NCBI GenBank assembly: GCA_949300375.1
Contig: CASGEB010000004.1
Coordinates: forward strand, 101 to 64,100
Length of the DNA: 64,000 bases
From: an uncultured Pseudomonadota bacterium
GTDB taxonomy: Bacteria; Pseudomonadota; Alphaproteobacteria; RF32; CAG-239
Reading direction: 5' to 3'
Positions 2,302 to 46,921 of this stretch are shown here, piece after piece (the first letter of the stretch is position 1; each line of letters opens with the position of its first letter). The notes beneath the pieces were generated by a model that ran no database searches, was not told the DNA's origin, and worked only from the letters and a program-made list of their open reading frames with translations. A program made the position numbers and the translations under genes.

Positions 2302-2416
2302 TTTCTCATCTCTGTTATTACTCATTGAATCAAATAATCCCGAATTTATATATATCAACAAATACTGATTGATTTTCCGGCACCATCGTGTTAAAACCAA
2401 AACAAAAGGGGATAAA

Positions 2417-2626
2417 ATGGCAGATACGGAGCTTGAAGAGCGGTTGATAAACATTGAAATGGCGCTGGCCAATCAGGAACGCGTCATAGAAGATTTGAAC
2501 CAGGTGGTTATTGAGCAGGGACGCCGTCTGGATTATTTGCAGAAACAAAATCAATATCTTCTGGAAAATATAGGTACAGAGGCCGTCAAACCGTTAAGCG
2601 AAGAAACGCCCCCGCCGCATTATTAA
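2417..2626 (+). CDS. slyX: SlyX family protein
   Basis: Start moved to the internal ATG after AAAAGGGG. Coiled-coil [23 protein letters not shown] and a C-terminal PPPHY are typical of SlyX. Confidence 0.8.
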
Positions 2627-2639
2627 AGCAAAGGACAAA

Positions 2640-3311
2640 ATGCAGATGGATGAAAACGCTCTTTTCAAGTTAACGCACGGGCTTTATGTTTTAGGAACAA
2701 CGGACGGCGCCCGTTTTGTCGGCAGCATTGTCGATGCCGTTATGCAGGTTGCCCACAAGCCGTTTGTCCTGGCGCTTTCCTGCGGAAACCAGAGCTATAC
2801 CAAATCCTGTCTTCATCCGGACAAAGAGTTTTCCCTTTCCGTTCTCGGAAAAAACGCTGATCCTTTTATTGTGGCAAATTTCGGTTTTCAAAGCAGCCGC
2901 GACGTCAACAAATGGGATAATGTCGATTTTGAGGAACAGGATGGACTGCCCTACTTGCAAAATACGCTGGCAGGTATTAAATGTAAGATAATTCAGGAAA
3001 TTGCCTTTGAAAGCAATACGCTGTTTCTGGCAGAAGTTTTGGACTGCTATGTCGGTACCGGGGATGGCGAGCCTTTAACCTACAATGATTACCGCAGCTA
3101 TTACAAAAGCGGGGTAATTAAAGTTTTTAATGAACAAAAAGACCGAATGAAAGGAAAACATATGACGGAAGAAAAGAAAAACAATGGCAAAAAATGGGTT
3201 TGCACGGTATGCGGCTATGTCTATGACGGAGATGTTCCTTTTGAAGATCTGCCGGATGACTGGGTTTGTCCGTTGTGCGGCGTAGATAAAAGTTTTTTTG
3301 AACTTCAGTAA
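2640..3311 (+). CDS. flavin reductase-like domain fused to a C-terminal rubredoxin (Hrb-like)
   Basis: The N-terminal ~160 aa resemble the flavin reductase-like fold. The C-terminus [13 protein letters not shown]...[15 protein letters not shown] has two CxxC rubredoxin knuckles. Confidence 0.75.
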
Positions 3312-21218: not shown

Positions 21219-22501
21219 TGCCGGGATTGCTGCAAGATAAAAAACTTTTCGGGGAAGATATCCCCTGGCTTTGCGCTCTGCGTGAAAAAGGCGCCGAGAT
21301 TTTCCGGCGCTTGGGCGTCCCGGGCGCAAAAGTGGAAGACTGGAAATATACCAAGCCCCGGATTTTGAACGCGGACGACTTTGTTTTGCCTGAAATGCCG
21401 GCCGCGCATGAATGTTCCTGCGGCTGCCGGCATCATGACGGAGAAGACTGCTGCTGCAAACAAAACTTGCCTTTTGAGGCTTATCAGATTCGTTTTGAAA
21501 ACGGCTTTTGGCAGCATGAACACAATCATTTGCCGGAAGGCGTTACGGTTTTGCCGCTGGATGAAGCAATTGCCGATAATGAAATCTGCCGCCGCTGGCT
21601 GGGAAAAATCGCCGATATGGAAAACGCGCCTTTTGCCGCTTTGAATACGGCTTATTTGGAAAACGGCGTCTTTGTCTGTGTTGAGCGCGGTGTAAAGCTG
21701 GACAAGCCTCTGGCCATAATCAGCCATACCTGCGCCGGAGAGGGCAATCTGTTTTATAACCTGCGCAATCTGATTGTTTTGGAAAACGGTGCTGAGGCGG
21801 AAATTGTCGAATATTTCCGTTATTCCGGCATTGAAAAATCCCGTTATTTTACCAATATCGTAAATGAGATTATGGTCGGCAAGAACGCTCAGCTGCGGCA
21901 TTATAAGCTGCAGGACGAGGCTTTTAAGGCCGCGCATGTGTCTTTGTCTGCCGTTCAGGTCAAAGCCGGCGGAAAGTATCATCATTTCTGCCTGCAAAAA
22001 GGAGCCGATTTGGGACGGGACGAAGTCCGGGTAAAATTATTGGATAAAGGGGCGGAAACCAGCGTCGACGCCGCTTACAAAATGTCAGGCTGGGCAACGC
22101 TGGATACAACGACGCTGATTGAGCATATTTCCCCGGAAACATATTCAGAACAATTGGTAAAAGGCGTTGTGGACGGTGAGGCAAAAGGCGTATTCCAAGG
22201 CAAAATCCACATTGCGCCGAACGCGGTTCATACGGAAGGAAGACAGCTGCATAAGGCGCTGTTGCTGTCGGATACGGCGGAAATCGACTGTAAGCCGGAG
22301 CTTGAAATTTTTGCCGATGATGTGAAATGTTCGCACGGTGCAGCCAGCGGAGAACTGGATGAAGAGCAGTTGTTTTATATGCGCTCCCGCGGAATAGACG
22401 AGGATGAAGCCCGACGGATTTTGGTTGAGGCTTTTCTTGACGACGTTTTGTTGAAAGTAGATTCGGAATCTGTCCGCAGCTGGCTGAAAGCTATGCTCTG
22501 A
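21218..22501 (+). CDS. sufD: Fe-S cluster assembly protein SufD with a Cys/His-rich N-terminal insert
   Basis: C-terminal beta-helix pattern (...CSHGAASGELDEEQLFYMRSRGI...). Start overlaps the sufC stop. Confidence 0.9.
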   Translation: MPGLLQDKKLFGEDIPWLCALREKGAEIFRRLGVPGAKVEDWKYTKPRILNADDFVLPEMPAAHECSCGCRHHDGEDCCCKQNLPFEAYQIRFENGFWQHEHNHLPEGVTVLPLDEAIADNEICRRWLGKIADMENAPFAALNTAYLENGVFVCVERGVKLDKPLAIISHTCAGEGNLFYNLRNLIVLENGAEAEIVEYFRYSGIEKSRYFTNIVNEIMVGKNAQLRHYKLQDEAFKAAHVSLSAVQVKAGGKYHHFCLQKGADLGRDEVRVKLLDKGAETSVDAAYKMSGWATLDTTTLIEHISPETYSEQLVKGVVDGEAKGVFQGKIHIAPNAVHTEGRQLHKALLLSDTAEIDCKPELEIFADDVKCSHGAASGELDEEQLFYMRSRGIDEDEARRILVEAFLDDVLLKVDSESVRSWLKAML

Positions 22502-30849: not shown

Positions 30850-32712
30850 TTATTTAGAAAGCTCCTGCTTTTTGGCAAACATTTTTTGCAGCAACTTCTG
30901 TTTATTGTTGCGGAAGCTCTCTTTAGGAAACTCAATTGGCTCTTTTTCCGCATTATTCAACTGCGATTTTGCCAATTTTTGCATTAATTTATCATCTAAA
31001 TACTCATAAGGAGAATGGGGTTTTGCCAAAGTAAGATTCTTATTGTTAAGGTAAGCCTCAACGCCTTTGGACAAATTGATTTTAACCCAGTTTTTTCCGT
31101 AGGCAAGCGCGAGCCCGTCGTTTGAGAGTCGGGCCACGGGGCGTATTTTGCCTTCTTCATTTTTGACCATATATTCCATACCGTCATTTTCATACACAAT
31201 ATATTTGCTGTTCTTGTCGGCAGAATATTTGATCTTATCCGCCTGAAATAAAGGCGTTTCCATTTTGGTATCAGAAGCTTCATAAACGCTGAATTTTTCT
31301 TCACCGTCCTTTTTGGCTGCAAAAAAATCTTGAGCAACAGCGGCAACTTCTTTAAGCCCGTTTATTTGAGAGCCGTCTCTCAAGTCCACAACACGATTCT
31401 GTTTTTCAAACTGCCCAAAATTTGAGATTGTGTTTGTTACATTTACCAGAGCGTTGCAGGTAACCCCGCTAATATACCCCCGGCCATAATCATTATTGAA
31501 ATCTAATATTTTAATATTTTTTTCGTTATCAACAAAGCACCCTGTAAACGCCTCTGTCCCTGAATTATAAAAGGTTCCGTATCTTGTTTTCTCTTCTGGT
31601 TGATATTTTAAATATTTTTCAAACCATTCTTCATTAGACATTTTAGAACTGGACAATTCCGTAATACCGTCTTTAGTAACGGAATATGTGTCTACCGTAC
31701 CATATTTGAGTCTTTCTATAAGAAGATTTTTTCCATCCGTTTGAATGATGTCCCGTTCATTAATATAACCAATGTCTGTTTTCTTTCCGGAACGGGTATC
31801 TTCTGCCCAGACAAAAGAATAGTAGTATCCATCACTATCCTTGTCATTCAGCTCTTGGCAATAAACCTCATAATTGCCGAATTTAACAGCGGGAATATCA
31901 TCATTATAATATTCGTCATCGTTTTCTTCTTCATATTCATAAAGAGGTTCGTTTTGTTCTCCCATATAGCGTAGTTTATTATTTTCGAATTTATAATATT
32001 CGGTTATTTCTTGAGAAGCACCTTCAAGCCCTTCATCCATATCATAGCTGGAAGACAGAACTTTTTCTCTATCGTCATACGAAATAGACGGATAGCGGCC
32101 ATATTTTTTATCAAAGGTCATCAGCAAGTCAAGACCATCGTCTTTAGCCTGATAAATACCGATTAAATTTTTATCTTCCCCGCCGCTGACTTCTAAAAGG
32201 CCGTCCTGAAACAAATATACAGAATGACTGGAATCGAATTTCTTAACGGTTTTCAATTCTCTGTTTTTATCCAGTTTCATAATAAATGTTGATGAATTTT
32301 TATTTCTCATTACAAAAACACCATCTGCATAATAAATAGAATTTCTATCCCCGAAATTAGCCCAGTATCGTCTGGATGTTGCTAATACCTTAGGCGATTC
32401 TTTGCTGGTATCAACATATTGCTTTATTGTAGAATCTTTTGTTTGCACAGCTACAGTAGCAATTTTGTTTATATTATCTTTTCGCAAAACAATACCTTGG
32501 TATTTTTTACCTCTTTTAGAAACAAGATCAATAGTTTCAACAGGTTCATCTGCATAATATATGCCTTGTTTGTTCTTCTTTTTATTTTCATCTCTCAGCT
32601 GTTTGCTTTTTAGATAGTGTTCCACTTCCGATGTGCTGGCTCCGAATGTCTGTTCTGAGTTTCCTTCTTGTTCCAATTTGCTGTCAATTTCTGACTGAGA
32701 CAATTTTGACAT
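30850..32712 (-). CDS. hypothetical 620-aa acidic, beta-rich protein
   Basis: Start moved to the ATG preceded by GAGGAG (the track starts at an upstream TTG). No recognised domain. Confidence 0.6.
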   Translation of the reverse strand: MSKLSQSEIDSKLEQEGNSEQTFGASTSEVEHYLKSKQLRDENKKKNKQGIYYADEPVETIDLVSKRGKKYQGIVLRKDNINKIATVAVQTKDSTIKQYVDTSKESPKVLATSRRYWANFGDRNSIYYADGVFVMRNKNSSTFIMKLDKNRELKTVKKFDSSHSVYLFQDGLLEVSGGEDKNLIGIYQAKDDGLDLLMTFDKKYGRYPSISYDDREKVLSSSYDMDEGLEGASQEITEYYKFENNKLRYMGEQNEPLYEYEEENDDEYYNDDIPAVKFGNYEVYCQELNDKDSDGYYYSFVWAEDTRSGKKTDIGYINERDIIQTDGKNLLIERLKYGTVDTYSVTKDGITELSSSKMSNEEWFEKYLKYQPEEKTRYGTFYNSGTEAFTGCFVDNEKNIKILDFNNDYGRGYISGVTCNALVNVTNTISNFGQFEKQNRVVDLRDGSQINGLKEVAAVAQDFFAAKKDGEEKFSVYEASDTKMETPLFQADKIKYSADKNSKYIVYENDGMEYMVKNEEGKIRPVARLSNDGLALAYGKNWVKINLSKGVEAYLNNKNLTLAKPHSPYEYLDDKLMQKLAKSQLNNAEKEPIEFPKESFRNNKQKLLQKMFAKKQELSK

Positions 32713-32740
32713 CTTCGTTCTCCTCTTCAATAATCAAAAA

Positions 32741-33020
32741 CCACCTTAAGAAGGTGGTCGGAGAGTTCGTAAATCATATTGAGTCAGATGATTCTCTAAG
32801 TTTTTAAAACAATGCCGCCAATTGCATGGCATTGTTTCTGAACATATACTTAGAGCTCCCCGACCATGGACGCGTCACATGATCAAGGGGATATACGCTG
32901 TCTTGGTTGCGCACTCAAGACAACTAAGCGGTGTATATCCAACACCGGACTCAATATGAGGACTTACGACAGTCCCGTACCTTCTTAGGTACTGAAGTAC
33001 AAATAACATTTGTACAACAC
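32741..33020. other. GC-enriched, hairpin-dense inverted-repeat region containing a tRNA-Thr-like fragment (candidate structured RNA or relic recombination site)
   Basis: Hairpins at 32741-57, 32807-37, 32858-90, 32900-21, 32977-92 and 32997-33015. Long-range complementarity of 32768-85 with 32948-68. The 11-mer GGACTTACGAC (32960-70) is identical to tRNA-Thr 46780-90. Confidence 0.4.
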
Positions 33021-33273
33021 TTATAGTAATATCATAATTTTTACAAATAGTAAATATATTTTTTGACGAAATAAGAAATAATTGTCTAACAAAGACTAAA
33101 AGCTCACCCCGGATTCAATAGGGGCGTATGGTGTTAAATGTCTGTAATAGCTTAATTTTTTTATAAAGTTTTATGGACAGAAAGTTTGGGCAAAATAAAG
33201 AATAAAAAACTTGCCTTTTTAAATAAATATGATATATCTTTACGCAAACGTCAAATTATTAAATAATACAATT

Positions 33274-33801
33274 ATGAAATCAGAAAAATTATTAAAAACC
33301 ATTCGTTCTGTTAGTGGAACAAAAGTTTTGCTTGAACCTTTTTCTTTTGCCAGATTGGAAGAATTTTACCGGCTTTACCAGAACTCCCGCCATAAATGGG
33401 AAAAATTTCTGACATTGCATTTTAATACAATCGGAAACGCCGGGACATGGATTTCCCAACAAACCCTGCTTGATTTTTTTATCGGATTTTTCATCATTGA
33501 AAAAAGCAGCGGCAAGATAGTTGGCTTTATTTCTGGTGACGAATTCGAGGATAAGGGTATCTCCAGAACAAGAGCCATCGGCATAGAATACGAAGGAAAA
33601 GGATATGCCTATGAGGCGTCAAAGCTGTTTGAACGTCTTGTTAAAGATGCCGGATATCCGGCAATCATATGCTTTTGTGATGAAGAAAACGAGCGTAATA
33701 AAAAATTGCTGTTAAGGGACGGTTTTGTCAAAATTTCCAAAGAAAAGCTTGAATGTTCGTCAGCGTCTGTGATATTGGGAATTTATACAAAAATGTTATA
33801 A
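33274..33801 (+). CDS. GNAT family N-acetyltransferase
   Basis: IGIEYEGKGYAYEASKLF (motif A) ...LLLRDGF. Start moved to an internal ATG. Confidence 0.65.
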   Translation: MKSEKLLKTIRSVSGTKVLLEPFSFARLEEFYRLYQNSRHKWEKFLTLHFNTIGNAGTWISQQTLLDFFIGFFIIEKSSGKIVGFISGDEFEDKGISRTRAIGIEYEGKGYAYEASKLFERLVKDAGYPAIICFCDEENERNKKLLLRDGFVKISKEKLECSSASVILGIYTKML

Positions 33802-39494: not shown

Positions 39495-39617
39495 ATAAAA
39501 TTGCTAAAATTTACATAATAAAATCAAATTGCCGGCGCTCCCGATTGTTGTTGTCCTAAGATAAAGCAATTATCGAACCGAGGATTATGAGGATTTTAAA
39601 GACTTGGGTGGGAAAAT
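39495..39617. repeat. cassette-boundary module, copy A (degenerate)
   Basis: Shares TTGCTAAAATTT with copy B, and GCAATTATCGAACCGAGGATTATGAGGATTTTAAAGACTTGGGTGGGAAAAT with the right ends of B, D and E. Confidence 0.6.
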
Positions 39618-39796
39618 GGAGATGTTTGAGGATAGTGTCAATAAAGACTTTGCTATTGAAAGTGGTATGATGTCAGATCTGAAGCCTGTTTTACCGTAAC
39701 TTATGATCTGATGGATGCAGATAACAGCTCGTTTGTTTCTTTGGCCAACGATACGGCATATAATGTCAAAGGCGAAACTCTCGACTATTTCGGCAC

Positions 39797-40228
39797 TCAG
39801 TAAAAACCACAGTCACTACAGGAACTAACAGGACAGACGCAAAGGCAAGGGGATATAATCTCAGAAATGTGTGAAGATAAGAACAAAAGAAATAACATAA
39901 AAATAATTACGCAAATACGTTTGGCAATAATATACTCTCTTTTGTCTGTTCTTTTTTTGGAAAATTTTAAAACCAATAAAACAAGTAAAGAAACGGAAAA
40001 CAAGCCCAAAAGTAATACATACCAAAACTCATAACTGGAAAAACATATTATATAATATGAGAGATACTTTTGCGAAAGAGCAAAAATCAAAAAGGTTACG
40101 CAAATACGTTTGACAATAATATACACTTTCCCGCCCATTCTTTTTTTTGAAAAGTTTAAAACTGGCAATGCAGCAAAAGAAACTAAAAGAAATCCTAAAT
40201 AAAATCCTGAAAATAAAATATCAGTCAT
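39797..40228 (-). CDS. hypothetical membrane protein with internal tandem duplication
   Basis: LNFSKKRMGGKVYIIVKRICV... is repeated as LKFSKKRTDKREYIIAKRICV.... The DNA repeat TTACGCAAATACGTTTG.CAATAATATAC is seen at about 39910 and 40096. Confidence 0.45.
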   Translation of the reverse strand: MTDILFSGFYLGFLLVSFAALPVLNFSKKRMGGKVYIIVKRICVTFLIFALSQKYLSYYIICFSSYEFWYVLLLGLFSVSLLVLLVLKFSKKRTDKREYIIAKRICVIIFMLFLLFLSSHISEIISPCLCVCPVSSCSDCGFY

Positions 40229-40340
40229 CCTACACTCACTTCCGCCATATAAAATAATACAAATATACTGCCCCTATCTATTGAAAAGTCAAGTTAAAAT
40301 ATCAATATTTAACACCTTTGAGCTGCTCAAATTTTTTCAG

Positions 40341-40385
40341 TCAATTTTATCGGACAGGGATTAGAACAATAAAAAGCTTGGTTTT
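40341..40385. repeat. solo right-end fragment of the module (copy B')
   Basis: TCAATTTTATCGGACAGGG...AAGCTTGG matches GCAATTATCGGACAGC...AAGCTTTTG of copy E. Confidence 0.45.
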
Positions 40386-40399
40386 TTAGCGTTCGCTCT

Positions 40400-40580
40400 A
40401 AAAGTCCGATAAGTTGCTAAAATTTGTTCTTTTAAAAATTCTCAAAATCGGACTAGCTGAAAGGTTTGGAATACATACAAAAAAAGCACCTCAAAAGGTG
40501 CGTTCTTAAAAATGGTGCGCGATACTGTGCAATTATCGGACTAATGAATATGACGATTTTAAAGGCTTGGGTAGGAAAAT
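40400..40580. repeat. cassette-boundary module, copy B
   Basis: AAAAGTCCGATAA (40400-), AAAATCGGACT (40447-54), hairpin GCACCTcaaaAGGTGC (40486-501), AAAAATGGTGCGC...GCAATTATCGGACT (40535-42), ...GTAGGAAAAT. Confidence 0.85.
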
Positions 40581-40769
40581 GGAGTTGTTTGATTGTGGCA
40601 TTAACAAATCAAATTTACTACTGGCATAATATTTTCAGACAGCCGCATCTTATTTTATAAAACTGAACAGTTGTATAAATTTTTAAAATAAACATTGACA
40701 ACAAAAACTTTTAACAGTATATTTTATAAAATCTGACATATGTACAATTATTTAAAATAGGAGGGTGTT

Positions 40770-42023
40770 GTGAAAATTGAAAGAACAAATTACCTTACTC
40801 AACTAATCAACAAAAAACACAACGGATTAGTTAAAATAGTTAGTGGAATAAGACGCTGTGGTAAATCCTATTTATTGTTTCAACTTTTCAAGCAACATTT
40901 GCTGGATGAAGGGGTTTCTGAAAAAAGAATCGTTACTTTGGCTTTAGACGACTATCCAAATATAAAATATCGTCAGCCAGATGAATGTTATAACTATGTC
41001 AAATCACATATCATTGATTCTGAAATGCATTATTTGTTATTAGATGAAGTTCAGCTAATGGATAATTTTTCAGATGTTTTAAATGGCTTTTTACACATTG
41101 AAAATTTAGATGTATATGTAACCGGAAGCAATTCTAAATTTTTATCTACCGACATTGTAACGGAATTTAGAGGCAGAGGAGATGAAATCAGGGTTTATCC
41201 TCTCAGTTTTGCAGAATTCTTTTCTGTTTATGAAGGATCTTGGACTGATGCATGGAAAGAATATTATACTTATGGTGGTATGCCTATGATTTTATCTCGT
41301 CAAACAGATGAGGAAAAGCGGAAGTATTTACAGTCTTTATTTACTGAAACATATATTCAAGATATCAAAGACCGGCATAATATCCGTAATGATGAAGAAC
41401 TAGAAGAATTAATAAATATTTTAGCTTCAGATATTGGTTGCTTAGTAAATCCGTTAATATTAACCAATACTTTTAAGAGCGTAAAAAAACTAGATATTTC
41501 AGCACCAACAGTTAAAAACTATATTGATTATTTGCAAGATTCTTTTTTAATTAGTAATGCGTTGCGTTATGACATTAAAGGTAAAAAGTATATAAACACT
41601 CCATCTAAATACTATTTTACTGATTTAGGATTACGAAATTCGCGTTTACGATTTAGGCAAACAGAAGAAAGCCATATCATGGAAAATATAATCTATAATG
41701 AATTGAAAATTCGTGGCTGTGATGTTGACGTTGGAGAGGTTCTTATTAAAGAAAAACAAGCCAATAATACATACATTAACAAAAAAACAGAAGTTGATTT
41801 TGTAGTAAACTGCGGTTACAAAAAATATTATATTCAATCAGCCTTACAAATGCCAACAAAAGCAAAAGAAACTCAAGAAAAACGCTCGTTATTAAAAATA
41901 GGTGATTCATTTAAAAAAATAATTATTGTAAAAGATGATGTGGCGACCTATCAAGATGATGACGGTATTTTAATTTTAGGGTTAAAAGAATTTTTGTTAA
42001 ATCCTAATTGCTTGGATATATAA
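40770..42023 (+). CDS. AAA-type ATPase of the COG1373 / DUF4143 family
   Basis: GTG start after AGGAGG. Walker A GIRRCGKS, Walker B LLLDEVQ. The C-terminal part has the DUF4143-like pattern. Confidence 0.7.
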   Translation: MKIERTNYLTQLINKKHNGLVKIVSGIRRCGKSYLLFQLFKQHLLDEGVSEKRIVTLALDDYPNIKYRQPDECYNYVKSHIIDSEMHYLLLDEVQLMDNFSDVLNGFLHIENLDVYVTGSNSKFLSTDIVTEFRGRGDEIRVYPLSFAEFFSVYEGSWTDAWKEYYTYGGMPMILSRQTDEEKRKYLQSLFTETYIQDIKDRHNIRNDEELEELINILASDIGCLVNPLILTNTFKSVKKLDISAPTVKNYIDYLQDSFLISNALRYDIKGKKYINTPSKYYFTDLGLRNSRLRFRQTEESHIMENIIYNELKIRGCDVDVGEVLIKEKQANNTYINKKTEVDFVVNCGYKKYYIQSALQMPTKAKETQEKRSLLKIGDSFKKIIIVKDDVATYQDDDGILILGLKEFLLNPNCLDI

Positions 42024-42126
42024 TTTCTTAGTAAGTTTGAAGAGATATTAATCTGTATTATGGAAGATATTAAATTGCCACAATAAAATACAGCTGACTT
42101 TCAAGCCAACTGTATTTTCATCAAAT

Positions 42127-42489
42127 TTAGAATAAGATTTTCTTTTTAAGACAGTATTGCAACCATCTGTACACTCTCCAAGGATGTGCAACAGCTTCAT
42201 GACAAATGTAAAATGAGAACCAAAAAATTGCATACTCTGCTTGAACCTCTGGTGGAAGATCTGTATTTTCGACAGTTTGAACAAAATCATAATTAGATTG
42301 TCTGTCATAATAGTCCTGACGTTTCGTATTATTCAGATCTTCAACTCCAAACAAAGCTATGTTCTTCTTTACACTGTTTAGGTTGCGTGCTTCTTCTATG
42401 AAATCATAAATCTGCTCTCTCGTTAAAATAACGGGGCAGCTCCTTTTGATAGCGTCTATGACATACGCTCTATTAATAACACTTTCCAT
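42127..42489 (-). CDS. hypothetical protein (120 aa)
   Basis: ORF only. Confidence 0.4.
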   Translation of the reverse strand: MESVINRAYVIDAIKRSCPVILTREQIYDFIEEARNLNSVKKNIALFGVEDLNNTKRQDYYDRQSNYDFVQTVENTDLPPEVQAEYAIFWFSFYICHEAVAHPWRVYRWLQYCLKKKILF

Positions 42490-42564
42490 AATTATAAGAT
42501 TTTATAAATAATAATTCTATTTGTGGACAGATTATATATAAAAACTTTAAAAGTAAAGAGATAA

Positions 42565-42750
42565 AAAAGTCCGATAATTCTTTCAAAACTATCATTATAA
42601 AAAACTCAAAAATCGGACTTTGTAAGCATTTGTTTAAAAATAAAAAATCCACCACTCGGGCGGAATTCTTAAAAATGGTGCGCTTTTGCTGTGCAGTTAT
42701 CGGACTAATTAATATGAGGATTTACAAGTATTTTCGAGAAAATTAAAGAT
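42565..42750. repeat. cassette-boundary module, copy C
   Basis: It has the same three GTCCGAT/ATCGGAC motifs (42569-75, 42612-19, 42699-706). Its internal hairpin TCCACCACTCGGGCGGA is of the type found next to the real tRNA. Confidence 0.85.
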
Positions 42751-42770
42751 TTTAAGGGAAATATGCAAAC

Positions 42771-43802
42771 TTAACTATTTTGCTTCTCATTTTGATACAT
42801 TCTTAAAGTGCTTAAATCAACTTTAGACATATTATAAGTTGGTTTATATGGTGGTTTTGTATCGTGGGCTTTTAGCCTATTACGCAAGTTTTCAATTCTT
42901 TTTGATATTTCATCCCTTGTGTTGTAAAGTTTTTGTTCTTTTACTGAGATACGATAATCGCCCCAAGTCATTTCATTAGCGCTCTCTGGTGCTGTTCTCT
43001 TGTTTGTGTCCGGATCATATACTATTTCCCCCCTGAGCTTGGACACGTTCATATCTCTAATAGGTTCTTGTGAACAATATTTAATGGGAATATCCGAGGT
43101 ATGCAACAAAGTTCCATTTATATTTATATTATCTTGGTTTGATGCAACAGCTTGTACTAATTTATCATAATTATTTTTGTATGAGGGGGACTTAGAACAT
43201 AGATAATCATTTATAGCTTGAGTTCTATAAGAGTTATTTGCATTTGTGCTGTCTACTTTTTCTATAATTTTTTGCCCAGATGAATTGGTATACTCAATTA
43301 TTGGGCACTTAGTTTCATTATCCCATCCAAGTTTATTAACAATGTTTTTTTCACCTAAAGAGTTTTCTGTCTCGAAATTTACATTAGCATTAAACTCATT
43401 CTTTTGAGCTTCCCAAAAATCTAAAAATATTGATCTGTTTCTTCCTCTCTTTATATTGGGATGTTGTTCATTATCTAACTGCCAAGCTGGATATTTTATA
43501 GTATCCTTTTTTACAGGAATTTCTATTTTAAGGGCCTCATTATTTTTAAGTCTAATATCAATACCAAAGTTTTTCATAGCCCACTCTGCATCAGCCGCAA
43601 CAAGTAAAGAGCAATAATACTTGTTAGCCTTGCCTTCACTAGTCCAACAATAAAAACCCTTACTTTGTCCACCATACCCATTACCTTGCTCAGGAACAAT
43701 TCCTTTTGCTAAGAACTGATTAGTTTTTTCCTCTGAAGCATCTCTTGATATATGATAAAATTTTAAATACTCATCATCCATTATACGACCTTTGCATCCC
43801 AT
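42771..43802 (-). CDS. PARP-like (H-Y-E class) ADP-ribosyltransferase domain protein with unknown C-terminal region
   Basis: N-terminus LKFYHISRD...FLAKGIVPEQ...GYGGQSKGFYCWTSEGKANKYYC aligns by eye with PARP1 LLWHGSR...ILSQGLRIAP...[21 protein letters not shown]. The H-to-Y spacing is an identical 34 residues. A later KNEF is a candidate for the catalytic Glu. The start may be the second ATG (43781). Confidence 0.5.
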   Translation of the reverse strand: MGCKGRIMDDEYLKFYHISRDASEEKTNQFLAKGIVPEQGNGYGGQSKGFYCWTSEGKANKYYCSLLVAADAEWAMKNFGIDIRLKNNEALKIEIPVKKDTIKYPAWQLDNEQHPNIKRGRNRSIFLDFWEAQKNEFNANVNFETENSLGEKNIVNKLGWDNETKCPIIEYTNSSGQKIIEKVDSTNANNSYRTQAINDYLCSKSPSYKNNYDKLVQAVASNQDNININGTLLHTSDIPIKYCSQEPIRDMNVSKLRGEIVYDPDTNKRTAPESANEMTWGDYRISVKEQKLYNTRDEISKRIENLRNRLKAHDTKPPYKPTYNMSKVDLSTLRMYQNEKQNS

Positions 43803-43864
43803 ATATTATAGTAATTTATAACATTCTTGTAATATTACAAAAATATAATTTATTCGTGCAAAAA

Positions 43865-44662
43865 TTACCGACAATTTTCCTTTAATTTTTTATTTCGTAA
43901 CATTGCCTCTTTAGCATCTTCCGTTTGGCTTTTTGCAATTTTCCTATTCTTTTCAGTTATTTCGCCTGTCCTGCTATTCCCTGTTTTGCCTAAATCGTCT
44001 TTAGATAAACCAATTTCTTCAAAGCCCGAAGATAGTGATTTGGTTTTAAGTTCTAACGGATCAATATTACTGTTTTTTATTCTTTTTCTGAGTTCTGCAA
44101 TTTTTTGTAAGCTCTTATCAGCATATTCAATTAAACCTGTTTCAGGATTAAAGTCTAGTTCGGGCTTTTTATTATCATCGCTTCTCTTTTGATTTGATTT
44201 TTGTTGCTCAAGATCATCGAAATTAAAGTTCGCAAAAGCATTAAAATCAGGTACACTTTCTTTAAATAAGAAATTGTCTTTTTTTCCGCCTTTAAATAAT
44301 TTTTCCAAATTTTCAAGTGTCGGTTCAAAATATTTTATTCCGGGTTGTCCTGGATTATCGCTGTTAAAGCCACAATGTTCATAAAAAGAGCCAGCACCCC
44401 ATGTGGCATGAACGACTATGCGTCCTTCACATCCCATTTGTTGTGATAACTCATAGCATTTTTGCAACCCGGCGCGTCCGTAACCATTTCTTTGGAAGGT
44501 TCCAAAGCCATCAATTTCTAAGACAGATTTATCTTTCCAAGTATCTGGACACAGAAAACCATTATATTGAGGATGGATTGAAATATTACAAATTCCAACC
44601 TTTGTCTCTCCCTCAAACATGTCATATGCAAACATATTGCTAATATTAAGAGTATCTACCAT
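43865..44662 (-). CDS. GNAT-fold acetyltransferase-like protein with Lys/Glu-rich C-terminal tail
   Basis: FQRNGYGRAGLQKCYELS (motif A) ...FYEHCGF. Confidence 0.55.
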   Translation of the reverse strand: MVDTLNISNMFAYDMFEGETKVGICNISIHPQYNGFLCPDTWKDKSVLEIDGFGTFQRNGYGRAGLQKCYELSQQMGCEGRIVVHATWGAGSFYEHCGFNSDNPGQPGIKYFEPTLENLEKLFKGGKKDNFLFKESVPDFNAFANFNFDDLEQQKSNQKRSDDNKKPELDFNPETGLIEYADKSLQKIAELRKRIKNSNIDPLELKTKSLSSGFEEIGLSKDDLGKTGNSRTGEITEKNRKIAKSQTEDAKEAMLRNKKLKENCR

Positions 44663-44756
44663 TTATGAACCCTCCAATATATTTTATCATTTTTTTAGCT
44701 AAAATGAAACAATTTATTAAAATTAGTAAAATGCTTGGTTTTGTTGATTTTTTATT

Positions 44757-44940
44757 AAAAAGTCCGATAGGTTAGCTTAAAAGTGCTTTTATAAAAATCC
44801 TTAAAATCGGACTAGCTGAAAGGTTTGGAATACATACAAAAAAGCACCTCAAAAGGTGCGTTCTTAAAAATGGTGCGCTTTTGCTGTGCAATTATCGGAC
44901 TGAGGATTATGAGGATTTTAAGGATTGGAGTAGGAAAATT
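44757..44940. repeat. cassette-boundary module, copy D
   Basis: Motifs at 44762-68, 44806-13 and 44894-901. Hairpin at 44844-59. TGGTGCGCTTTTGCTGTGCAATTATCGGACT is identical to copy E. Confidence 0.9.
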
Positions 44941-44942
44941 AA

Positions 44943-45707
44943 CTATAATATTTGCCGTCTAATGTCTTTTTCATTTATTTGACAATATAAGTAAGATTCC
45001 TCCATAAATTGTATTATATTTTTAGACTTTATATAGAGAGAGGTTAACTCTTCAAGAATAATTTGATTATTTATTTTCATATCATAAAAATATTTATAAG
45101 CTGGTTTATTTTTATACTTTTCAGGATACATATTTCCAATATCTGTATTTTTCACAAAGGTATCTATGACCATTTCGCTTAAAATCCATTTTAAATTTGG
45201 TGCTTCATATTCAGACCAATCATCTTTAAAATGTTGTTTCCATATATAAAACCAAACAAAATGAATCATTTCATGAAGAGATGTTTTTAGAAAGTCAAGT
45301 TCATCCCCTGCCCAAGTAACAGAATAGCTTTGATGCCTGAGATTTCTGGGACATACGGGATTAAGAGAAACTTCTGCAATCATAGTATTAAAAAGATTGT
45401 CGCAATCAATACCATACACTTTTGTGTAAATATGATTTATTTTTTCTTTGTTTTCATTCCAAATTTTTTGGAAAATAAAACACTTTTTTTGTAAGTTTAT
45501 TTCAATTTTATCATAGATTTTTGATAATTCTGCCGTTAAATATTCTTTTCTTTCATTCCAAGCCATATTTAAACATTTTTTTTCGTCCAAAAAAGGATAA
45601 GCTTTGAATAAAGCTCCTCGCCAGTAAGCAGAAGTATCATCAGTTTGAAAATTCAAAATACTTGATAATGTGTCAATTTTATCCATTATTTTGACTGATA
45701 AGTCCAT
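44943..45707 (-). CDS. hypothetical HExxH-motif protein (putative zinc metallopeptidase)
   Basis: SLHEMIHFVW, with SEMVID 27 residues downstream as a possible third ligand. Confidence 0.45.
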   Translation of the reverse strand: MDLSVKIMDKIDTLSSILNFQTDDTSAYWRGALFKAYPFLDEKKCLNMAWNERKEYLTAELSKIYDKIEINLQKKCFIFQKIWNENKEKINHIYTKVYGIDCDNLFNTMIAEVSLNPVCPRNLRHQSYSVTWAGDELDFLKTSLHEMIHFVWFYIWKQHFKDDWSEYEAPNLKWILSEMVIDTFVKNTDIGNMYPEKYKNKPAYKYFYDMKINNQIILEELTSLYIKSKNIIQFMEESYLYCQINEKDIRRQIL

Positions 45708-45771
45708 TTATATATCTCCTTATTTCAAGTTGTGTGAGGATTGTATAGAATGCAATATGTAAAGTAAAGAT

Positions 45772-45953
45772 AAAAGTCCGATAATTCTTTCAAAATCATC
45801 AAATTAAAATTCTCAAAATCGGACTGAATGAAAGGCTTGGTTTATATAGCAAAAAAGCACCTCAAAAGGTGCTGCCTTAAAAATGGTGCGCTTTTGCTGT
45901 GCAATTATCGGACAGCTTTTTATGATGATTTTAAGCTTTTGAGTAGGAAAATT
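45772..45953. repeat. cassette-boundary module, copy E
   Basis: Motifs at 45776-82, 45818-25 and 45907-13. Hairpin at 45857-72. Confidence 0.9.
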
Positions 45954-45959
45954 TGAACT

Positions 45960-46571
45960 TTATATAAATCCATTTGCCGTTAAATAATCATAAATCTCAT
46001 CAGACATAATCTGATGCCCTTTAGCATTAGGATGAGTAGCATCTTTGTACAACTCTTTTAATTTGCGATTTTTCCATAAATTATATCGAGAGAAGAAAGC
46101 TATGTTGCGACTATCACAAATTTCTTTAATTATCTCATTATATCTTTCAACATCTGAATTATAACGAATGAGAGAAGCTTGTTCCGTATATCTTTCCTCA
46201 ACAACCGGAATTAGGTCTAAAACAACAATATTTGCTTTTGTTAAGGCTAAAATATCAAGGAGTTTATTCCAATACATTTTTCTAGCACCTTCAGAAAAAT
46301 CTAATTGCAAATCACTATCTTTGCGTCGTCTTAAGTCATTGATGCCGATATTTACCAGAATTAAGTCAAAATTTCTTGATAGCGTTTCACTAAATGCACG
46401 ATTAGTTGCATCGGCAACATTATCTCCGGATTGTGACATATTATTAAAAACATATTCACCTACGTGATGTGATAGTATCTTTTGAGCAAGTCTTGCAAAA
46501 TATCCTAAATTTTGTTCATCATAATATCCGTGAGCAATACTATCTCCAATCATGCCAATGTTTTTAACCAT
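45960..46571 (-). CDS. SGNH/GDSL family hydrolase
   Basis: Block I IGDSIAHG, block III GINDL, block V DATHPNAKGH. Confidence 0.8.
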   Translation of the reverse strand: MVKNIGMIGDSIAHGYYDEQNLGYFARLAQKILSHHVGEYVFNNMSQSGDNVADATNRAFSETLSRNFDLILVNIGINDLRRRKDSDLQLDFSEGARKMYWNKLLDILALTKANIVVLDLIPVVEERYTEQASLIRYNSDVERYNEIIKEICDSRNIAFFSRYNLWKNRKLKELYKDATHPNAKGHQIMSDEIYDYLTANGFI

Positions 46572-46647
46572 TTTCTTCTCCTTAACTTCATTTGTAATAA
46601 GTAAATACCTATAATTTTAAAAGGTCAAATATATTATTAATTTTACC

Positions 46648-46759
46648 AAAAAGTCCGATAAGTTGTTGAAAATTGCCTATTTTAAAATCTAAAAAATCGG
46701 ACTAAATAAATACTTGTTTAAAAACAAAAAATCCGCCACTTGGGCGGAAATATCAAAAA
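46648..46759. repeat. native downstream flank of tRNA-Thr, apparent template of the module (copy F)
   Basis: AAAAGTCCGATAAG (46653-59), AAAATCGGACT (46696-703) and terminator hairpin TCCGCCACTTGGGCGGA (46731-47). The third motif is the tRNA T-loop itself. Confidence 0.85.
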
Positions 46760-46834
46760 TGGTGCCGCTAGTAAGAATCGGACTTACGACCCCACCCTTA
46801 CCAAGGGTGTGCTCTACCACTGAGCTATAGCGGC
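46760..46834 (-). tRNA. tRNA-Thr (anticodon GGT) with atypical T-loop TCCGATT
   Basis: 75-nt cloverleaf folded by hand. Acceptor GCCGCTA/TAGCGGC, anticodon loop TTGGTAA, T-arm GTAAG-TCCGATT-CTTAC, encoded CCA. Confidence 0.85.
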
Positions 46835-46921
46835 GTTCGTTATTCTGTGAATGAAACATACATAAACATTTAAATAAAATCAAGTATGAATTATGCTAAA
46901 TACATAATTTTTTTTATAAAG

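Follow-up and report, generated by a model that had tools for sequence, protein, structure and literature searches.

A multicopy structured RNA with two covarying alternative folds precedes diverse genes in uncultured gut Alphaproteobacteria

The locus and the extent of the RNA

The window, that is, the whole 64,000-nt stretch of DNA that was analyzed, contains a 280-bp region at 32741-33020 that stands out by its base composition. The initial annotation had placed this region upstream of a gene for a 620-aa protein and described it as GC enriched, and both points hold: its G+C content is 0.45-0.52 versus 0.19-0.36 in the A+T-rich flanks. The 620-aa open reading frame (ORF) is on the minus strand, so that the 280 bp in question lie upstream of it on that strand. 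The features on either side of the region are as follows.

30850..32712, minus strand: 620-aa orphan ORF behind the leader (ORF call)
32710-32712, minus strand: ATG start codon of the 620-aa gene (sequence)
32720-32725, minus strand: ribosome-binding site (RBS), GAGGAG (sequence)
32733..32759, minus strand: intrinsic terminator, GACCACCUU-CUU-AAGGUGGUU then UUUGAUUAUU (terminator search)
33027..33055, minus strand: putative sigma70-type promoter, TTTACT, 17 nt, TG-n-TATTAC (read from the sequence)

The 620-aa protein had no match in Pfam, NCBIfam or PADLOC and, when used as a query, went unmatched in the 40 relatives searched. It is hydrophilic and rich in Lys, Glu, Asp and Asn, and no signal peptide was evident by inspection.

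Against dinucleotide shuffles, the minus-strand fold (-118 kcal/mol) had a z score of -8.2 and the plus strand one of -9.2. Three features assign the RNA to the minus strand, namely the ORF, the U-tract and the conserved G-U pairs, which are numerous and many of which would become A-C mismatches if the opposite strand were transcribed. The minus-strand RNA comprises about 285 bases, from about 33020 to 32733, and its 3' end is the intrinsic terminator, located 8 nt before the RBS of the 620-aa ORF. The terminator hairpin (32759-32739) has 9 pairs followed by TTTGATTATT, as expected of an intrinsic terminator. With Rfam 15, no family matched the region at gathering thresholds, and only chance snoRNA and ctRNA matches were obtained for 32500-33400 at E <= 10. 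Thus, no known Rfam family explains the fold.

Transcription probably starts near 33020, as judged from the position of the putative promoter. This candidate was absent from the output of a consensus promoter scan of the window. Among homologues, the best -35/-10 match ended a median of 30 nt (interquartile range, 24-36) before the model start and was positionally concentrated, with promoter scores that barely exceeded those of shuffles. Another sigma70-like promoter near consensus (TTGACA, 17 nt, AATAAT; 11/12 matches) was seen at 32706-32734 on the plus strand; it lies at the first codons of the 620-aa gene and faces the leader in antisense orientation. This predicted promoter overlaps gene-specific sequence and is therefore probably a chance match, but it may give rise to an antisense RNA across the leader.

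Distribution of the RNA family

A BLAST search with the region gave partial matches in 20 of the 24 genomes of the same bacterial family, and twenty copies could be aligned over about 260 nt with long invariant blocks. A pattern scan of species-representative genomes yielded more than 120 loci, almost all of them in uncultured gut, rumen and faecal Alphaproteobacteria, with carriers including "Proteobacteria bacterium CAG:495", "Azospirillum sp. 51_20" and Candidatus Scatocola. A covariance model (R1; 255 positions, 60 pairs) was then used to count copies. R1 detected the RNA in 107 of the 121 genomes of the host family, at 1 to 16 or more copies each and about 500 matches in total. Shorter (about 175-230 nt) and G+C-richer forms were found in 13 other alphaproteobacterial families (150 sampled). 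Since the RNA was matched in relatives and the 620-aa protein in 0 of 40, the RNA is not tied to this particular gene.

A gene of some kind is nearly always present. An ORF of at least 45 aa followed on the same strand behind 148 of the 155 distinct copies, starting a median of 27 nt past the model match, and a terminator (a hairpin starting at the end of segment C, defined below, then at least 5 U in 8 nt) was present in 126 of the 155. The initial annotation had suggested a structured leader or noncoding RNA for the downstream gene; this suggestion is supported by the strand of the gene, the terminator before the RBS and the ORFs behind the homologous copies.

In some places two complete leaders form a tandem pair on one strand, separated by 68-95 nt (L047, 2504-2741 and 2809-3037; G113:C14:20989-21219 and 21314-21547). 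Tandem arrangements are familiar from riboswitches. In the 1.64-Mb genome to which the window belongs, R1 found a single copy of the RNA, inside an A+T-rich accessory island. The window copy may therefore be a recent import. At locus L192, in a complete 1.9-Mb alphaproteobacterial genome, a serine recombinase with a resolvase/invertase-type N terminus (2350-3018, minus strand) lies just past the lipoprotein gene behind a short-form leader, which suggests that this leader-gene unit is on a mobile or invertible segment.

A full-text literature search found no earlier description of this alphaproteobacterial RNA family. It is among the largest and best-covarying bacterial RNA families absent from Rfam, and its hosts are abundant but uncultured Alphaproteobacteria of the gut and rumen.

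Fold I

The elements of the RNA, from 5' to 3', are listed below. Segment B has two possible partners, segment A in the first fold (Fold I) and segment C in the second (Fold II).

32997..33015, minus strand: P0, 5' variable hairpin (folding; homologues have a hairpin of other sequence at the same position)
32977..32992, minus strand: P1, hairpin GUACC/GGUAC; covaries, with double changes at 5/5 pairs
32960..32975, minus strand: P2, hairpin GGACU-GUCGUA-AGUCC; 90% paired, with double changes; its loop forms PK1 and it holds the 11-mer that also occurs in tRNA-Thr
32948..32958, minus strand: P3, 5' strand of the long-range helix; all four Watson-Crick types occur about equally often at its six central pairs
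32929..32947, minus strand: P4, hairpin CGGUG...CACCG; 99% paired, with compensatory changes
32900..32921, minus strand: P5, variable hairpin; double changes at 6/6 pairs
32889-32896, minus strand: PK2, 3' strand (folding of the window copy)
32878-32888, minus strand: segment A, the 5' strand of P6 (folding; P6 is 98% paired)
32856..32868, minus strand: segment B (CAUGGUCGGGGAG); partner of A in Fold I (helix P6) and of C in Fold II
32794..32855, minus strand: P7 arm; 98% paired, with double changes at 8/8 pairs
32808-32836, minus strand: P7a, the inner hairpin of P7, a conserved internal arm
32788-32793, minus strand: AAUCAU hexamer, invariant
32775-32785, minus strand: P3, 3' strand, forming the long-range helix with 32948..32958
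32772-32777, minus strand: AUGAUU hexamer, invariant
32767..32772, minus strand: PK1, 3' strand UUACGA, partner of the P2 loop; 98-99% paired, with double changes at 4/5 pairs
32756..32765, minus strand: segment C (CUCUCCGACC); fully complementary to B over 10 nt

Fold I was supported by two alignments. Among 102 model-aligned copies, which had been chosen by two conserved blocks, 92.8% of the cells paired and compensatory changes were found at 57 of 70 pairs; among 73 distinct copies, which had not been chosen in that way, 94.0% of the cells paired and compensatory changes were found at 61 of 65 pairs. For comparison, 70-73% of the cells paired in shuffles and about 40% with slid partners. 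P3 and PK1 were the most freely covarying elements: among nine paralogues of one genome, P3 was different in each and the PK1 sequences varied too. The P2 of the window copy carries two compensatory pairs relative to the consensus. Covariation was weaker for PK2, in which the P4 loop GGAUAUAC can pair with its 3' strand (85% paired). Within P7, the conserved internal loop GUAUGUUCAG / UUAAAA(G) has invariant loop bases, AUGU-CA and AA.

All six hairpins that the initial annotation had listed are present, namely the terminator stem (32741-57), P7a (32807-37), P6 (32858-90), P5 (32900-21), P1 (32977-92) and P0 (32997-33015). The interrupted 18-bp complementarity between 32768-85 and 32948-68 is also real; it consists of P3 (11 bp) and PK1 (5-6 bp) and is among the best-supported pairings. 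Two labels of the initial annotation have to be replaced. The 32807-37 hairpin with TTTTAAAAA, which had been read as terminator-like, is the conserved arm P7a with an internal-loop strand, the actual terminator being at 32759-32736, and the "anticodon-arm-like" hairpin is P1 of the RNA family.

In Fold I, the more favourable state thermodynamically, P3 closes a multihelix junction containing P4, P5, P6 and P7, the P2 loop pairs with the bases just 3' of P3 (PK1), and segment A keeps segment B in helix P6. Because segment C is free in this fold, we propose that the terminator forms and that transcription halts before the RBS.

Fold II and the proposed switch

Segment B (GGUCGGGGAG) is complementary to A and, over 10 bp, to C. 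In an alignment that had been fitted to Fold I, 97.6% of the B:C helix was paired and 4 of its 10 pairs carried double changes. Compensations included GAUCGGGGAG with CUCUCCGAUC, GGUCGGGGUG with CACCCCGAUC and GGUCGGGGAA with UUCCCCGACC, and explicit B:C double changes occurred among the paralogues of one genome. In addition, the AAUCAU and AUGAUU hexamers, which lie on either side of the P3 3' strand, are complementary to each other. This hairpin was 93.1% paired in one alignment and 94.5% in the second, with compensatory changes, and neither alignment had been fitted to it. Since each of the two mutually exclusive folds covaries, both are under selection. The covariation analysis that the initial annotation had proposed thus supports not one fold but two.

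In Fold II, segment B would pair with segment C over 10 bp and thereby take two basal G-C pairs of the terminator stem, since the last two C's of segment C are the first two bases of that stem. The AAUCAU/AUGAUU hairpin would keep the P3 3' strand in its loop, and the outcome would be a three-way junction like the fold of sRNA-Xcc1 in Rfam. Fold II would thus act as the antiterminator, and RNA polymerase should read into the gene. Because B:C shares only two bases with the terminator stem, antitermination is a deduction rather than a demonstration.

For the window copy, the energy of Fold I was -116.5 kcal/mol and that of forced Fold II was -99.8 kcal/mol. As Fold I is favoured energetically, the default state is taken to be termination, and as it is more stable by about 17 kcal/mol, Fold II would need kinetic help or the help of a factor. 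We infer that the two folds switch termination, that the default is "off" and that the balance is shifted by a common signal. Such a signal might come from a small ligand or a protein, or from processing, and would act on the conserved unpaired bases. These invariant bases, namely the two hexamers (AAUCAU and AUGAUU) and the GUAUGUYCA/UAAAG internal loop of P7, might be bound by a factor that serves as the trigger; kinetic control during transcription and processing that cuts off the 5' half are further candidates.

Overall, it is fairly likely that the region encodes a bistable leader RNA that acts in cis and whose minus-strand transcription runs from about 33020 in the direction of the 620-aa gene. 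The probable role of this RNA is to determine whether RNA polymerase terminates ahead of the orphan gene. Alternatively, the functional product might be the terminated RNA itself. The two covarying alternative folds represent a concrete, testable switch.

Downstream genes, candidate signals and alternative readings

The proteins encoded downstream of 137 nonredundant copies were diverse, and most matched no family. Among those that did were GT2 glycosyltransferases (9 copies), SNase nucleases (7 copies), outer-membrane beta-barrels (6 copies), autotransporters, LysR regulators and XRE regulators (4 copies each), acyltransferases (3 copies) and EcoRI-type methylases (2 copies). No coherent ligand-linked pathway was found among the 137 proteins. 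The downstream genes are too heterogeneous to point to a ligand, and their diversity speaks against a metabolite-specific riboswitch and for a global or element-intrinsic signal. As the leader precedes cell-surface and accessory genes, its signal would be a master input for host interaction.

An RNA with its own promoter and a strong terminator could also be a stand-alone gene for a trans-acting small RNA (sRNA), with the ~285-nt product acting on other mRNAs or proteins and the proximity to a gene being incidental. Fold I is very stable, and Hfq is encoded in 5 of 5 genomes checked, both in keeping with this reading. Published precedents exist: sRNA-Xcc1 accumulates as an 88-nt RNA (PMC2996969), and the genes behind the abundant Brt RNAs of Bartonella are silent (PMC5387305). 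However, an ORF starts within about 27 nt of 148 of the 155 copies, always on the same strand, and a pure sRNA would have no use for a second conserved fold in competition with the terminator. Moreover, the only long single-stranded seed candidates, P3 and PK1, differ from copy to copy and are paired in cis. Thus, a purely trans-acting RNA is considered unlikely, although a role in trans and a role as a cis leader are not mutually exclusive.

If the RNA were a classical riboswitch sensing a global small-molecule signal, e.g., c-di-GMP, this would explain why many copies precede surface-protein genes. The large conserved junction, the pseudoknots, the invariant unpaired bases, the terminator/antiterminator platform, the tandem copies and a regulon rich in cell-surface genes all agree with this reading. 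It is opposed by the lack of a match to any Rfam riboswitch model, even at E <= 10, and by the lack of metabolic coherence in the gene set. In addition, the most conserved unpaired element, the P7 internal loop, is swapped for another loop in Xcc1-type relatives, and one distant member, L187, joins an alpha-type 5' half to an Xcc1-type loop. For c-di-GMP itself, the GEMM-I and GEMM-II models of Rfam gave no match. A search for GGDEF domains found none in two 100% complete genomes, G019 and G117, that each carry 15 to 16 or more copies of the RNA, which makes c-di-GMP unlikely as the trigger. A classical riboswitch is accordingly given a low probability, similar to that of the sRNA gene.

Two further observations concern these genomes. 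The genome of the window has three GGDEF domains, compared with none found in G019 and G117 (same family, genus g10), so that c-di-GMP signalling seems dispensable in part of this bacterial family. RfaH/LoaP-type antitermination by a NusG paralogue was also considered and rejected, as a search of five genomes found a single NusG gene in each.

The initial annotation had offered a DNA-level explanation as well, namely a decayed attachment site or tRNA-Thr-derived repeat at an old boundary of the island. The region does lie in an A+T-rich accessory island, and the window does contain exactly two copies of the 11-mer GGACTTACGAC, one at 32960 and the other within tRNA-Thr. The match is nevertheless not meaningful, with about eight 11-mer matches expected by chance for a 280-nt query against 128 kb (an arithmetic estimate). 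The 11-mer covers the P2 loop and 3' strand, where the PK1 bases are hypervariable and different in nearly every homologue, and the matching bases are not conserved in any homologue. The claimed homology to the cassette modules fared no better. When 32741-33020 was aligned with the cassette array at 39495-46900, the best local score was 25, compared with 25.1 +/- 2.3 for dinucleotide shuffles, 112 of 200 of which reached or exceeded the observed score, and the "module-like" stretch falls on the hypervariable P3 and is likewise conserved in none of the homologues. With similarity to tRNA-Thr and the modules at chance level, hypervariable matching bases, strand-specific conserved G-U pairs and hundreds of homologues elsewhere that do not adjoin a tRNA, a decayed attachment site is rejected as highly improbable.

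Relation to sRNA-Xcc1

The proposed cis-acting bistable leader has a distant counterpart in Rfam, sRNA-Xcc1 (RF02221). In earlier work, RACE was used to map sRNA-Xcc1 of Xanthomonas campestris, which was regarded as a trans-acting sRNA (PMC2996969); it is found upstream of symE in integron cassettes (bioRxiv 10.1101/2025.06.18.660453), and several copies are present in a Xylella island (PMC12189769).

The distant member L187 scored 38.3 bits over the full 87-position RF02221 model, compared with a gathering threshold of 53 bits, and 32500-33400 of the window gave no match to the model at E <= 10. In the alignment of L187, the outer stem of RF02221 is B:C, the first hairpin is P7 and the second is AAUCAU/AUGAUU. 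RF02221 therefore depicts Fold II. Its outer stem, GgCcGGggG/CccCCgGcC, corresponds to B:C, and the same architecture, a three-way junction in which a G/C-rich outer stem encloses two hairpins, was found in the window family with compensatory changes. The internal loop of P7 is different, being GUAUGUYCAR/UAAAG in the window family and AAUACAA/GAAAU in sRNA-Xcc1. R1 gave no matches when run on genuine Xcc1 loci, so the link rests on the architecture, on similar B, C and P2 sequences and on one intermediate member. From these similarities, common descent of the window family and sRNA-Xcc1 appears likely.

For a closer comparison, 30 Xcc1 loci (L213-L242) from a phylum-wide sample were used, 24 of which scored above the Rfam cut-off and 15 of which were inspected by eye. 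These loci share an unannotated 5' half that consists of a CTTGAC-type promoter, a GGGGC-loop-CCCC hairpin, a short variable strand and a hairpin with a U-run. As in the window family, the sequence upstream of the annotated 87 nt has a P2-like hairpin, with a loop matching the linker ahead of C, and a P3-like strand, which matches the hairpin 2 loop. This 5' half is unmentioned in the three reports cited above (PMC2996969, bioRxiv 10.1101/2025.06.18.660453 and PMC12189769), and a full-text literature search found no description of it.

When the variable segments of the Xcc1 loci were paired with their own upstream elements, the cognate energy was -23.3 kcal/mol versus -12.0 kcal/mol for noncognate pairs, and the cognate was the best of 26 in 18 cases. 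Pairing with both sides of the Shine-Dalgarno sequence of their own gene gave -17.8 versus -12.3 kcal/mol, with the cognate best in 14 of 26. Most Xcc1 loci have no terminator, and their variable segments are instead complementary to their own RBS region, whereas the alphaproteobacterial family, whose output would be the terminator, as a whole shows no such complementarity (cognate, -8.76 kcal/mol; noncognate, -8.21 kcal/mol), and k-mers shared between its leaders and RBS regions were no commoner than in permuted pairs. RBS complementarity was present in a few alphaproteobacterial copies, e.g., L184 and L194; the window copy ranked 13 of 155, which was not significant.

A broader possibility, to which we give somewhat less than even weight, is that the alphaproteobacterial leaders and sRNA-Xcc1 are two branches of one Proteobacteria-wide RNA device composed of a 5' mimic, a three-way-junction module and an output. 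The 5' mimic would be the P2 loop and the P3 5' strand, and the central module would be the annotated Xcc1. The copy-specific variable bases of this module would have as their partner the mimic or, where the locus is of the Xcc1 type, the ribosome-binding region of its own gene, and in gut Alphaproteobacteria a terminator would have replaced the original output. If so, sRNA-Xcc1 would not be primarily trans acting. It would be the core, processed or stable, of a self-contained switch acting in cis, with which mobile elements gate accessory, toxin-like and surface genes; this switch might work as an expression timer or as a sponge-antisense-target circuit. The link suggests that Xcc1, as studied in Xanthomonas and Xylella, makes up no more than the 3' half of a larger device that acts in cis. 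The mimic and RBS matches of Xcc1 are testable at once in these cultivable plant pathogens.

Comparison with known leader RNAs

For the Brt1-9 RNAs of Bartonella, abundant short leader transcripts were observed while the downstream gene was barely transcribed (PMC5387305), and riboswitch-like control of read-through was proposed (Tu et al. 2016, PMC5387305). To go by the published description, on which the likeness is based, the Brt RNAs resemble the window family in being alphaproteobacterial, multicopy and highly structured, at about 200 nt. They have their own promoter and a 3' terminator-like structure and lie directly upstream of the barely transcribed gene (PMC5387305). The Brt RNAs precede only XRE regulators (trp genes), whereas the window family precedes very diverse genes. 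The Brt RNAs are a precedent, in a cultivated alphaproteobacterium, for an abundant terminated leader in front of a silent gene.

Riboswitch and attenuator leaders, such as the lysine and T-box leaders, share with the window RNA a large junction-type structured domain upstream and the set of segments A, B and C plus a terminator with mutually exclusive A:B, B:C and C:terminator pairings. Both a structured domain and the mutually exclusive terminator/antiterminator pairings were found here. Unlike the lysine and T-box leaders, the window RNA has no identifiable ligand, tRNA or leader peptide, and its regulon is not metabolically coherent. Furthermore, its antiterminator state is not a simple hairpin but an elaborate, conserved three-way junction. 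We regard the element as a new, elaborate variant of the terminator/antiterminator leader, distantly related to sRNA-Xcc1, with a mechanism that we infer from covariation.
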